From IMG/VR virus record IMGVR_UViG_3300045988_010479: a stretch of 6,008 nucleotides of DNA; one strand, 5' to 3'. Below are positions 4,805-6,008 of the stretch, in pieces. Under the pieces are notes generated by a model. It made no database searches, had not been told where the DNA came from, and was given only the letters and a program-made list of their open reading frames with translations. The translations under genes and the position numbers were made by a program. This stretch comes from a virus. How positions within the stretch are numbered: the stretch's first letter is position 1; the number at the start of each line of letters is the position of its first letter.

Positions 4805-4975
4805 TTAAAAATCAAATGTTTGGTCTATTCTGTAGAGCGTTACTTTTATTACGTTTGCTTCTGCTCTACATTTTTTCGCTTTTTCTTTTGCGTCTCTGGT
4901 TGTTTCTATCCACATCTTTTGTTCTTTTGTACCGTTTTCGAAATATACTCTTACCAAAAATTTGTACTGTCTCAT
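4805..4975 (-). CDS. Hypothetical protein, 56 aa from ATG 4975 (MRQYKFLVRVYFENGTKEQKMWIETTRDAKEKAKKCRAEANVIKVTLYRIDQTFDF). The track ORF is extended to GTG 5035 (76 aa).
   Basis: ATG 4975-4973 with GAAGGGAAGGT 7 nt upstream. The 5' extension to 5035 would cover a consensus extended -10 promoter, so the shorter form is preferred. First gene after the large non-coding region. Stop TAA 4807-4805. Confidence 0.45.
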   Translation of the reverse strand: MRQYKFLVRVYFENGTKEQKMWIETTRDAKEKAKKCRAEANVIKVTLYRIDQTFDF

Positions 4976-5006
4976 GGTTCTTACCTTCCCTTCTTTTTCT
5001 GATTCT

Positions 5007-5023
5007 ATTATACCATATGTCAA
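5007..5023 (-). promoter_or_regulatory. Candidate sigma-70-type extended -10 promoter driving the accessory operon (minus strand: TTGACA TATGG TATAAT, i.e. TGGTATAAT)
   Basis: Minus-strand TATAAT at 5012-5007 preceded by TGG (TGnTATAAT extended -10 consensus). A perfect TTGACA hexamer at 5023-5018 is only 5 bp away, too close to act as -35 for this -10. Predicted TSS ~5000, giving a ~25-nt leader with an SD before ATG 4975. Confidence 0.45.
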
Positions 5024-5059
5024 TAGGCTTTTCACTGATTTTCCTGTTTTGTAATAAAA

Positions 5060-5080
5060 TTGTAACCTTCTCTTGTAACC
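5060..5080. repeat. Direct repeat TTGTAACC x2 (5060-5067, 5073-5080) plus a related TTGTAAT (5049-5055), 35-75 bp upstream of the candidate promoter
   Basis: Read directly from the sequence: tttTGTAATaaaaTTGTAACCttctcTTGTAACCcgg. Confidence 0.5.
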
Positions 5081-5104
5081 CGGTTTTGCTCCTTTGTTTT
5101 GAAT

Positions 5105-5118
5105 GGCGCTTTAGCGCC
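5105..5118. repeat. Near-palindrome GGCGCTTTAGCGCC. Its core CGCTTTAGCG (5107-5116) is repeated directly at 5322-5331, bracketing the TTCAACA arrays.
   Basis: Exact 10-bp match at the two positions. First copy forms a 5-6-bp GC stem. Confidence 0.5.
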
Positions 5119-5180
5119 TTGCCGTGTGTAGCGCATGCGGAACTCGGCTAAATCCATTCCTTTTTAGCGCTGTGCGCGTT

Positions 5181-5300
5181 TTCAACACTTTCAACACTTT
5201 CAACACTTTCAACAGGTTTTCAACAAAATGTTGCACAATGATTTTCGTTATTTTGACGAACTTTCAACATTTCAACAAGTTTTCAACAAAACTTTCAACA
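5181..5300. repeat. Iteron-like arrays of TTCAACA (minus strand TGTTGAA), nine same-orientation copies. Array A: 5181, 5190, 5199, 5208 (exact 9-bp period, CTTTCAACA x4) plus 5219. Array B: 5263, 5271, 5282, 5294. Degenerate TTGCACA at 5231 and TTCAAC at 5348.
   Basis: Read directly from the sequence. All copies are non-coding and sit between the accessory-operon promoter and the rep 3' end. Confidence 0.85.
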
Positions 5301-5400
5301 TTGTTTTTTGCTTTTTATTTACGCTTTAGCGTTAAATTTTAGCACTTTTCAACTTTTCCACTACCTCTACTACTACTCCTACAACAAGTTAATATTATAT

Positions 5401-5444
5401 TGCGCGTGCGCGCGTGCGCGCTATCGCGCGTGCGTGCACGTGCG
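5401..5444. repeat. Alternating purine-pyrimidine (CG/TG) tract, Z-DNA-prone: TGCGCGTGCGCGCGTGCGCGC-TAT-CGCGCGTGCGTGCACGTGCG
   Basis: A 21-nt and a 20-nt perfectly alternating Pu/Py run separated by TAT. About 75% GC, embedded in AT-rich non-coding DNA (TTAATATTATAT immediately upstream). Internal GCGCGTGCGCGC repeats. Confidence 0.8.
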
Positions 5445-5458
5445 AATTAGATTACCTG

Positions 5459-5476
5459 ATAGACTGAATAGACTGA
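5459..5476. repeat. Tandem 9-bp repeat ATAGACTGA x2 (context cTGATAGACTGAATAGACTGATACATAG)
   Basis: Exact tandem copies at 5459-5467 and 5468-5476. Confidence 0.7.
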
Positions 5477-5500
5477 TACATAGAGCTTTTAAACGACAAT

Positions 5501-5532
5501 AGCCCAGTACCTTACTTGATAGGTACTGGGCT
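5501..5532. promoter_or_regulatory. Perfect 12-bp-stem hairpin (AGCCCAGTACCT / AGGTACTGGGCT) with 8-nt loop TACTTGAT, 20-50 nt 3' of the rep stop on the coding strand. Candidate rep transcription terminator and/or replication-origin stem-loop.
   Basis: Exact inverted repeat read from the sequence. A second small hairpin GACACTgttaaAGTGTC (5541-5557) covers the rep stop codon. Confidence 0.6.
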
Positions 5533-5551
5533 AGGTGACACTATGACACTG

Positions 5552-6008
5552 TTAAAGTGTCCCCCTCTTCTTCATCTGCTTCTTTATCACTCTCTCTTTC
5601 GTTTTACACTGTTCTGCAAAGTTTGCATTTTCATACTTAAGTCGGTTCTCTGCGATTGCTGCTGCTTGTCTGTTCTGCTTAATTCTCCACAATCTTTGTG
5701 GGTTTTCAGCTTCCATCATTTTTTCATAATAGCGCGGAATTTGTGCGTGTTTGCCGTTTGTGCATTGGATGTAGCCTTGTCTCCAGATTTCTTCTTTGTG
5801 CTTTTTGTAATAGTTATCTCCTAGGCCTGGCTTAAGGCTCATACGTGCAAAAGGTTTTTGCTGCCCTAGTTCATAGTATGCGTTTGCTTTCTGGCCGTCA
5901 ATTTCGTACATTTTTTTTGTAACGTATCCTGCAACATATCTATATGTCTCTGGCACTGCTTGTGCTATCTGTATTTGACCCATGTCCCATAGTTCTGATA
6001 GCCATTTA
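5552..6008 (-). CDS. VP4: Replication initiation protein Rep (VP4), C-terminal part (143 aa from the internal Met plus upstream codons), truncated by the window end. Upstream part is 100-662 on the circle.
   Basis: ORF track 5552..5983 (-). Contains RYVAGYVTKKMYEID (RCR motif III with two catalytic Tyr, near-identical to phiX174 gpA YVAKYVNKK) at 5912-5938. Stop TAA at 5552-5554. The frame stays open from 5984 to 6008, consistent with continuation at 75-662. Confidence 0.9.
   Translation of the reverse strand, partial: KWLSELWDMGQIQIAQAVPETYRYVAGYVTKKMYEIDGQKANAYYELGQQKPFARMSLKPGLGDNYYKKHKEEIWRQGYIQCTNGKHAQIPRYYEKMMEAENPQRLWRIKQNRQAAAIAENRLKYENANFAEQCKTKERVIKKQMKKRGTL
5910..6008. repeat. Exact 99-bp direct repeat of bases 1-99 (terminal redundancy from wrapping a circular 5909-bp genome, or the start of a second tandem unit)
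   Basis: Bases 1-99 and 5910-6008 are identical base for base. The repeat runs to the window end, so its true extent is unknown. Confidence 0.95.

Follow-up and report, generated by a model that had tools for sequence, protein, structure and literature searches.

The window analysed here is a stretch of 6,008 nucleotides from the IMG/VR virus record IMGVR_UViG_3300045988_010479. It is a circle of 5909 nt, bases 1-99 being equal to bases 5910-6008 (99-nt terminal overlap), and holds a gokushovirus genome in which every gene is located on the minus strand (the sense strand). The closest GenBank relatives are gut gokushoviruses of humans, pigs and monkeys, with 84-86% identity across 87-88% of the genome. 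Replication origins have yet to be defined for gokushoviruses, and it is not known which bacteria the abundant gokushoviruses of human and animal guts infect. The subject of this work is the non-coding block that follows the rep gene, together with its core of ~220 bp (5179-5401), which matches the chromosomal replication origins (oriC) of Oscillospiraceae and Ruminococcus in motifs and architecture. We consider it probable that the block is the replication and transcription control region of the phage, and that its core is a functional mimic of the unwinding module of the host origin which recruits DnaA.

A long non-coding block follows the rep gene

Genes and features of the window are listed in Table 1. 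The Rep translation contains the tyrosine pair YVAGY, which was read directly. An earlier note, made from the sequence alone, had described positions 5036 to 5551 as one continuous, densely structured non-coding block and as the likely seat of a replication origin, of transcription control and of host interaction. The block is indeed continuous and non-coding; its left edge was set ~60 nt short. The edge at 5036 stems from the call of an open reading frame (ORF) started with GTG (ORF 4805-5035). Since a promoter-like site sits inside this GTG-started extension, the real edge is 4976, and the first accessory ORF probably starts at the ATG at 4975 and not at the GTG at 5035. With these limits the block comprises 576 nt, which is 9.7% of the genome.

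Across 57 close relatives the conservation of the three phases in the block is 0.892/0.893/0.891, showing that a 3-nt periodicity is absent; for Rep the values by codon position are 0.957/0.980/0.834. The longest ORFs in the block range from 0 to 70 amino acids on the sense strand and from 34 to 134 amino acids on the antisense strand, and their lengths vary freely between relatives. The periodicity and ORF conservation tests rule out a protein-coding gene. A scan of the whole window with the Rfam covariance models (E <= 1) gave no match to a known structured RNA family.

The block was found by blastn in 57 GenBank gokushovirus records, and it also follows Rep in those IMG/VR relatives that reach far enough, so that it is present in more than 150 related genomes. 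The earlier note had proposed alignment to related genomes; the presence of the block in these records excludes an assembly chimera or artefact. Among close relatives, conservation from 5534 to 5095 is 0.8-0.99 per 20-nt bin, compared with 0.83 for the third codon positions of Rep; from 5095 to the accessory genes the sequence is a mosaic with a conservation of about 0.6.

As single-stranded DNA, both strands fold better than shuffled sequences (sense strand, z = -3.1; + strand, z = -5.5); a prediction of single-strand folding was among the checks proposed in the earlier note. Tandem arrays with periods of 9, 8 and 12 are present, as are three hairpins with compensatory substitutions; repeats, hairpins and GC tracts are far beyond the shuffled expectation, which confirms the dense structure. 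A further helix, GGAA/TTCC at ~5150-5165, was judged by eye and dropped, its variants being without covariation. Read on the sense strand from the Rep stop, the order is the GTGTCA motif, a 13-bp hairpin, a variable spacer, a GC tract, the core, a short GC block with two small hairpins, and a promoter.

Table 1. Genes and non-coding features of the window, in sense-strand order within the block. Positions are those of the window.
Feature	Position	Strand	Description
Rep/VP4	662 across the junction to stop 5552-5554	-	HUH-family domain PF23343
Other minus-strand genes		-	56-aa ORF, M15 peptidase, several small ORFs, VP5
VP3, VP2, VP1		-	scaffold protein, pilot protein, capsid protein; VP1: PF02305, E = 3e-141
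Whole non-coding region	4976-5551	-	from the Rep/VP4 stop to ATG 4975 of the first accessory ORF (ORF map, Pfam)
GTGTCA(C) motif	5534-5541	-	directly 5' of the hairpin on the sense strand; G2-A7 (GTGTCA) invariant
Rep-proximal hairpin	5500-5533		perfect 13-bp stem, 8-nt loop 5513-5520
Less conserved spacer	5446-5499		9-bp direct repeat ATAGACTGA x2 at 5459-5476; conservation 0.73-0.82
Two alternating purine/pyrimidine (CG/TG)n tracts	5425-5444 (20 nt), 5401-5421 (21 nt)		Z-DNA-prone, near-palindromic
AT-rich 20-mer	5382-5401	+	CAACAAGTTAATATTATATT; putative unwinding element
Trinucleotide repeat	5367-5381	+	CTA CTA CTA CTC CTA; 3'-GAT-5' on the sense strand; DnaA-trio-like
Proximal tandem overlapping boxes	5346-5366	+	TTTTCAACT 5346-5354, TTTTCCACT 5354-5362, then spacer ACCT
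Short palindrome	5321-5332		ACGCTTTAGCGT; between distal and proximal boxes
Distal array, 10 co-oriented boxes	5179-5300	+	TTTTCAACA x3, CTTTCAACA x5, ATTTCAACA, TGTTGCACA
Central palindrome	5244-5260		TTCGTTATTTTGACGAA; inside the distal array
Two small hairpins	5105-5148		5121-5127 with 5142-5148; 5105-5109 with 5114-5118 (GGCGC-TTTA-GCGCC)
Promoter-like site, sigma-70-type	5007-5035	-	-35 GTGAAA 5035-5030, 17-nt spacer, TG-TATAAT 5012-5007

The core combines a box array, trinucleotide repeats and an AT-rich element

The core consists of 12 co-oriented boxes (TTTCAACA or TTTTCCACT), a 4-nt spacer, the trinucleotide repeat and the AT-rich 20-mer. The earlier note had left the identity of the repeats unnamed. 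All 12 boxes point the same way on one strand. The heptamer TTCAACA is found nine times on the + strand between 5181 and 5300, compared with 1.18 expected in the whole window, and none of 200 shuffles reached 10. Conservation of the core is 0.927 and thus higher than that of the third codon positions of Rep (0.834), showing that it is under purifying selection.

The layout is that of the basal unwinding system (BUS) of bacterial origins, which has been defined as a DnaA box with up to two mismatches from TTATCCACA or from the box typical of the species, an optional weaker tandem box, a spacer of up to 16 nt (modal length 10-13 nt), at least three trios (3'-NAN-5'; consensus 3'-GAT-5') and AT-rich DNA (Pelliciari 2021, PMC8287927). 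In the phage, TTTTCCACT lies beside the trios and has two mismatches from TTATCCACA; the commonest proximal box among relatives is TTTTCCACA, which has a single mismatch and is used in 32 of them. The upstream tandem box TTTTCAACT has three mismatches, within the four tolerated for the weaker box. Counted to the trios, the gap is 4 nt for the proximal box and 12 nt for the upstream one, both within the 16-nt limit. Five trios follow, four of them perfect GAT, so that at least three consecutive trios with a central adenine are present. The 20-mer is 80% A+T (16/20), as expected for the AT-rich part, although the stretch is short (~20 nt); in several loci the 25 nt beyond the trios are 68-76% A+T. 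In oriC a distal subregion of boxes raises the local DnaA concentration (PMC6669920), and the ten boxes at 5179-5300 are placed like such a subregion and may act in the same way. One feature differs: a BUS belongs to a chromosome origin beside dnaA and dnaN, and the core lies in a microvirus genome after rep. Because of this location it is filed as a phage-borne mimic or variant and not as an oriC.

Of 91 phage loci, 65 contain a stringent version of the pattern (box with up to two mismatches, up to 16 nt, at least three perfect CTA), 64 of them with a 4-nt spacer and KX513876 with one of 9 nt. The remaining loci include contigs that end before the core and loci with slightly varied trios or proximal box. 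The + strand of the trio region reads CTACTACTACTCCTA in 31 loci, and (CTA)3-6 in others. It contains four TnnT, as in the DnaD recognition element: in B. subtilis the strand opposite the trios, 5'-CTACTATTACTTCTACTA-3', is bound by DnaD via TnnT pairs (PMC10201434).

Within the AT-rich element, TAACTTGTTGTAG is invariant in 67 aligned cores, inverted ones included, and is also found in distant lineages. Its phage-specific invariant part is CAACAAGTTA, which reads TAACTTGTTG on the sense strand. This part is absent from host oriC, where plain AT-rich DNA lies beyond the trios. An invariant sequence of this kind in an element predicted to melt is a hint that Rep might gain access there. A dif/XerCD-like site was also considered for the 20-mer; comparison by eye with the dif sites of E. 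coli and B. subtilis gave no convincing match.

The pattern of conservation bears on a simpler use of the boxes. DnaA titration sites are known in bacteria, and twelve boxes per genome on a multicopy replicative form could titrate DnaA in the manner of datA or of the box clusters of B. subtilis, as a sink that arrests or reprograms host initiation and has no role in phage replication. However, the strictest conservation is found in the proximal box, the 4-nt spacer, the trios and the AT-rich 20-mer and not in the distal array, and titration needs none of these elements. As the sole function of the core we therefore hold a sink to be improbable; it is compatible with an unwinding function.

Other host regulators were considered as well. 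The boxes are one mismatch from the 0A box of Spo0A (TGTCGAA versus TGTTGAA), and 0A boxes overlap DnaA boxes in the B. subtilis oriC, so that binding of Spo0A or another host regulator could tie the phage to sporulation, as in phi29. Yet the CG core of the 0A box is present in none of the 12 boxes, which moreover adjoin DnaA-trios at the canonical spacing in host and phage alike, and this makes such a regulator very improbable. Resemblances to Spo0A, PhoP and WalR boxes were rejected on account of misfits in spacing or core bases.

In distant gokushoviruses, perfect DnaA boxes are part of the array: TGTGGATAA in MG945657 and three copies of TGTGGAAAA in MG945157. In these two genomes (L088, 1150-1360, and L089, 1110-1290), TGTTGAAA boxes are mixed with TGTTGATAA and with TGTGGATAA or TGTGGAAAA. 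Such variation among boxes might follow host differences in oriC dialect.

Chromosome origins of Oscillospirales have the same architecture

Genomes of 185,579 species, one for each, were scanned for three tandem TTTCAACA boxes, for which we estimate ~0.1 hits by chance. At least 120 loci were found; among the matches listed, ~46 of 120 came from Oscillospiraceae, Ruminococcus, Ruminococcaceae or unclassified Clostridia. Nine of these loci contain dnaA, and seven of the nine dnaN as well (also among the matches listed). Pfam domains identify yidC-dnaA-dnaN in one locus (L150) and jag-yidC-dnaA in another (L102). In the nine Oscillospirales loci among the matches listed, the density of TTCAACA is 12.4/kb within 700 nt of dnaA, compared with 0.78/kb elsewhere. 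Their boxes are TTTTCAACA (73), CTTTCAACA (34), GTTTCAACA (13), TTTTCCACA (13) and ATTTCAACA (9), a spectrum that matches the phage core.

The likeness extends to the unwinding elements. At its end the dnaA-dnaN spacer of L150 reads TTTTCCACA-gccc-CTACTACTACTACTA-AT-rich; the corresponding ends are TTTCCACAgTTTCAACA-tacc-(CTA)5 in L102 and TTTTCAACAgTTTCAACA-cccc-(CTA)5 in L097 and L178. The 4-nt spacer length and the trio sequence are identical in host and phage. A short palindrome, e.g., GGCTATATACAGCC or TTGTCCATATATGGACAA, is located a few tens of nucleotides upstream of the proximal boxes in host origins (L150 5330-5345, L102 7540-7555, L178 5462-5480), and the phage has ACGCTTTAGCGT at the equivalent place.

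At the sequence level, this shared architecture of DnaA boxes, DnaA-trios and AT-rich DNA agrees with the proposal of the earlier note that a replication origin and a host interaction element are seated in the block. It suggests that the hosts are Oscillospiraceae or Ruminococcus-like bacteria. Shine-Dalgarno-type (SD) ribosome sites and a TG-extended -10 element are present too, which we take to fit a Firmicutes host. VP1 and Rep homologues as signs of a prophage context were not found in the 120 fetched bacterial loci; lysogeny in general lies outside this check. Dense TTTCAACA arrays also occur outside the Firmicutes, in Mesoaciditoga/Athalassotoga (L122, L156, L163 and L198) and in Anaerolineae (L128); among these loci, only L122 has the signature of a box, four nucleotides and (CTA)n.

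The module is retained while Rep diverges

A scan of IMG/VR for a box followed by four nucleotides and CTACTACTA gave 113 new loci among the matches listed. Microviruses account for 76 of them, with Rep proteins 30-94% identical to that of the window (median 58%). The other 37 loci are larger viral contigs (e.g., L224, L226, L232, L241 and L252) that carry the signature and have no VP1 or Rep homologue; possible sources are further phages with an origin-like module, host DNA that was binned as viral, and matches by chance. The module lies 106-480 nt after the end of Rep in all measurable loci, with one exception seen, KX513876. In this genome (L086, 5379-5630) an inverted core and the GTGTCA-hairpin precede rep, in the interval from VP2 to VP4; only ~10 nt separate the AT-rich end of the core from the hairpin, and the GC block and the small hairpins remain downstream of rep.

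Retention of the module while Rep diverges to 30% identity (among the matches listed) counts in favour of a DnaA-recruiting core. It also bears on whether the boxes could be iterons bound by the phage Rep (VP4) or another phage protein, as in the bind locus of the double-strand origins of rolling-circle replicons (pMV158, CRESS-DNA viruses), with the likeness to oriC being incidental. Iteron arrays near nick sites are usual in such replicons, and here direct repeats do lie near putative cleavage motifs, i.e., TAACTTGTTG in the 20-mer and the CTTGATA-type loop ~110 nt away. Iterons, however, normally co-vary with their Rep, and the box sequence stays constant while Rep diverges to 30-45% identity. 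Because the boxes are unchanged even at 30% Rep identity, Rep iterons are unlikely. In addition, the host oriC has the same box variants, 4-nt spacer and (CTA)n, and in distant lineages perfect DnaA boxes stand in for the boxes. Taken together, we regard the iteron explanation as quite improbable.

In 67 of 73 close relatives the CTA strand runs antisense to the genes, as it does, among the matches listed, in 70 of 76 loci from the pattern search (~92%). In the remaining six of each set the core (~210 bp) is inverted; two contigs are common to both. Inverted carriers are L010, L056, L062, L067, L068 and L069, L083-L085, and L249, L276, L291 and L322. Among close relatives, the inverted cores belong to a single divergent sequence type (76-79% identity), and the Rep backgrounds that carry them are unrelated: L056 has non-inverted genomes as its closest neighbours by Rep (96-97% identity). 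Inverted modules are also found at 30-52% Rep identity.

Inversion of a ~210-bp core in some relatives, its placement elsewhere in KX513876 and the polyphyly of the carriers by Rep would all suit an invertible (phase-variable) segment or a small mobile cassette. The features of an invertible promoter are lacking, though: apart from short GC palindromes the core is not flanked by inverted repeats, and no recombinase gene is encoded in the genome. The inverted cores are a separate sequence type, which points to an old inversion spread by recombination, and no near-identical pair of genomes differs in orientation alone. A switch or cassette is thus highly improbable. Because flanking inverted repeats and a recombinase gene are absent, we attribute the orientation pattern to rare inversions plus modular recombination at the GC-rich flanks and not to a programmed switch.

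Alternating GC tracts border the AT-rich end of the core

The (CG/TG)n tracts adjoin the AT-rich end of the core, and no such tract arose in 200 shuffles. On the + strand a (CG/TG)n tract forms a 20-bp hairpin. In 79 of 98 distinct phage loci an alternating tract of this kind follows the trios at a distance of up to 120 nt (median 27 nt), and in only five it is on the box side. Its role may be to delimit the melted region or to take up superhelical stress. In the neighbouring spacer (5446-5499), G/C-rich hairpins replace or expand the sequence in some relatives.

Covarying hairpins and a phiX174-like motif flank the core

The loop of the Rep-proximal hairpin reads ATCAAGTA on the sense strand and TACTTGAT on the + strand. 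In the alignment 95.6% of cells are paired and seven of the 13 pairs show compensatory changes; the covariation score was matched by none of 500 shuffles, and controls slid along the alignment fall to 23-52% paired. The CAAG of the loop and the GTGTCA upstream of the stem are invariant even at 45-52% Rep identity. The small hairpins on the accessory-gene side are paired in 99.5% of cells, with compensatory changes in four of 11 pairs and a covariation score reached by none of 500 shuffles; conservation of this region is 0.8-0.9. At the same place, more distant lineages have a different GC-rich structured element with a common ACGGC motif.

Loops of the TACTTGAT type carry what we take to be the cleavage motif of the phiX174 and pC194 origins (CTTG/ATA). 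In KT264800 the loop reads CAACTTGATAG on the + strand. In Chlamydia phage Chp2 a 14-bp hairpin (AJ270057, 2904-2941) has the identical 8-mer TACTTGAT in its loop, which in that phage is on the sense strand; the loops of the Chp2 and SpV4 hairpins read TCTACTTGATC and ATTACTTGTTATA, the latter on the deposited strand (M17988, 512-544). In the terminator scan the Rep-proximal hairpin scored as terminator-like. It is thus a candidate for a recognition and nick site of Rep, for the rep terminator, or for both. A second CTTG is found in the AT-rich 20-mer; cleavage by Rep at these motifs is putative.

The strand on which the motif lies is puzzling. The cleavage motif is invariant in the hairpin loop but antisense: where a perfect hairpin of the CTTG/ATA-loop type is present, the motif is on the antisense strand in 136 of 136 loci. 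The sense strand contains 38% A and 18% T; the antisense strand is T-rich, folds better and carries the CTA/TnnT in ~92% of genomes. The AT skew of the sense strand is +0.35 here, -0.03 in Chp2, 0.00 in SpV4 and +0.29 in phiMH2K. Because phiMH2K has a similar skew, composition leaves the packaged strand undecided. Since the sole phiX- or Chp2-like motif in a covarying hairpin is on the T-rich antisense strand, together with the CTA/TnnT, this clade may package the antisense (negative-sense) strand. Two observations count against antisense packaging: the G-T wobble cells in the covarying helices, which are compatible with folding of the sense strand or of its RNA, and the terminator score of the Rep-proximal hairpin. 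A search of open-access papers and bioRxiv for the origin or this hairpin in Chp2 and other gokushoviruses found nothing relevant. In other microvirus clades, hairpins with conserved loops and compensatory changes have been described without an assigned function (PMC9865509).

These hairpins could mean that the region acts mainly as single-stranded DNA (ssDNA), as a complementary-strand origin whose hairpins serve host RNA polymerase, primase or primosome (like a single-strand origin, sso, or a primosome assembly site, PAS). In one version DnaD would bind the TnnT of the CTA strand on the incoming virion DNA. Folding of both strands, the compensatory changes in the three hairpins, the similar hairpins of other clades (PMC9865509) and the four TnnT, which resemble the DnaD recognition element, are consistent with such an origin, and the 92% orientation bias would suit a strand-specific role. 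The box array, in contrast, is unstructured and its boxes all point one way, so that single-stranded DNA would offer no duplex boxes, and the core survives inversion in several lineages. As an explanation of the whole region an ssDNA origin is possible but doubtful; most likely it applies to the flanks, alongside a DnaA-recruiting core.

A promoter precedes the accessory genes

The promoter-like site on the accessory-gene side has 10 of 12 matches plus the TG. It is followed by an SD-type ribosome-binding site (GAAGGGAAGG) and the ATG at 4975, so that promoter and ribosome-binding site occupy 5035-4980. Relatives have TTGACA/TATAAT-type sites at the equivalent place. Transcription control, which the earlier note had placed here, is matched by an extended -10 promoter ahead of the accessory operon and by the terminator-like hairpin that follows rep. 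Just upstream of the promoter there are three TTACAA repeats (~5048-5085), which are poorly conserved.

A phage-borne unwinding module may recruit host DnaA

A mechanism compatible with these data would start on the double-stranded replicative form, where host DnaA would bind the 12 TTTCAACA/TTTTCCACT boxes. The ten distal boxes would raise the local DnaA concentration, and the two proximal ones would anchor the complex. From there, ATP-DnaA would polymerise onto the (TAG)n trio strand and the adjoining AT-rich 20-mer would melt. We infer DnaA binding, unwinding and use of the opened DNA from the sequence. The opened DNA might serve to load helicase and primosome of the host (DnaD/DnaB/DnaI-DnaC in Firmicutes); the replicative form would then be amplified, and phage replication would be coupled to the DnaA-ATP status of the cell. 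Alternatively, single-stranded DNA might be offered to the phage HUH Rep. The flanks would add the Rep-proximal hairpin with its phiX174-like CTTG/ATA loop, other single-strand hairpins and the promoter of the accessory operon.

Several points weigh against a DnaA-recruiting core and the hosts deduced from it. Established microviruses such as phiX174 are not known to need DnaA for replication. At position 6, TTTCAACA does not fit the relaxed DnaA-box consensus TTWTNCACA, and because of this mismatch its identification as a DnaA box rests on its place in host origins. The ~8% of inverted modules argue against a strictly strand-specific role, and a purely orientation-free role leaves the 92% orientation bias unexplained. 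Enrichment of the boxes in the proposed hosts is semi-quantitative, being expressed as proportions among the matches listed, and the basis of the host assignment is solely motif mimicry together with signals of translation and of promoters. Finally, blastn of phage against host DNA gave repeat-level matches only (30-130 nt), i.e., the likeness is one of motif and architecture without long-range homology. This excludes a recent capture of a host oriC. Because the likeness is architectural and no long alignment is found, the core is a mimic or an ancient acquisition and neither a recent capture nor a chimera.

With these points included, we still think that a control region with a DnaA-recruiting core is the probable function of the block. 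A wider scenario is considerably less certain, and we put it forward tentatively: a large clade of gut gokushoviruses with Gram-positive Oscillospirales hosts might have taken over the initiation logic of the host, as DnaA-dependent rolling-circle ssDNA phages with a hybrid theta/rolling-circle replication, possibly including plasmid-like carriage, and with a negative-sense virion strand on which DnaD at the TnnT starts the complementary strand.

If a DnaA-recruiting core is indeed used, an HUH rolling-circle phage would rely on the chromosomal initiator of its host, which would be a new mode of take-over with a possible link to the growth state of the host. The match to oriC would provide a sequence-based, testable host assignment (Oscillospiraceae/Ruminococcus), and the phage would offer a compact natural BUS (~220 bp) for the study of DnaA-trios outside a chromosome. 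Microviruses of Gram-positive bacteria are barely documented (PMC9239249). In open-access papers and bioRxiv we found no paper that connects DnaA boxes or DnaA-trios with Microviridae or other phages in a comparable sense, and the non-coding region is not discussed in the studies from which the closest relatives were deposited.

Comparison with known replication origins

Single-strand origins, such as the primosome assembly site of phiX174, the G4 ori(c), ssoA of rolling-circle plasmids and the A site of the DnaA-dependent ABC-primosome, are like the block in being hairpin-rich non-coding regions in rolling-circle replicons. No sequence match to these origins came up, and no search aimed at one was made. 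Unlike in the ABC-primosome A site, the DnaA boxes of the phage are located outside a hairpin stem and the box array is unstructured.

The phiX174 (+) origin and the nick site of the pC194 family (CAACTTG/ATA and CTTG/ATA) resemble the hairpin loop TACTTGAT and the sense strand of the 20-mer, TAACTTGTTG. The phiX174 site is located inside gene A on the sense (virion) strand and needs no hairpin, whereas the motif found here is in a hairpin loop on the strand antisense to all genes.

In the theta origins of plasmids and phages (P1 oriR, pSC101, F, R6K, RK2), DnaA boxes beside an AT-rich region recruit the host initiation machinery. The phage module is similar in that an extrachromosomal replicon carries host DnaA-type boxes beside AT-rich DNA. 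Theta origins have few DnaA boxes plus iterons and are opened by the plasmid initiator; the phage has no separate iterons, carries a trio array, and its own initiator is an HUH nuclease.

The oriC BUS, as in incC of B. subtilis with boxes 6/7, trios, an AT-rich region and distal boxes 1-3, has the same bipartite layout of proximal and distal parts as the phage core. Tandem proximal boxes, a short spacer, at least three trios, an AT-rich stretch, a distal cluster 50-190 bp away and TnnT on the opposite strand are all found in the phage. The differences are that the module resides in a 5.9-kb ssDNA phage beside an HUH rep gene and not between dnaA and dnaN, and that its AT-rich part, only ~20 nt long, contains the invariant phage-specific CAACAAGTTA and in most cases borders on a Z-prone GC tract. 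By its sequence features, the phage core is a phage-borne variant of the oriC BUS.

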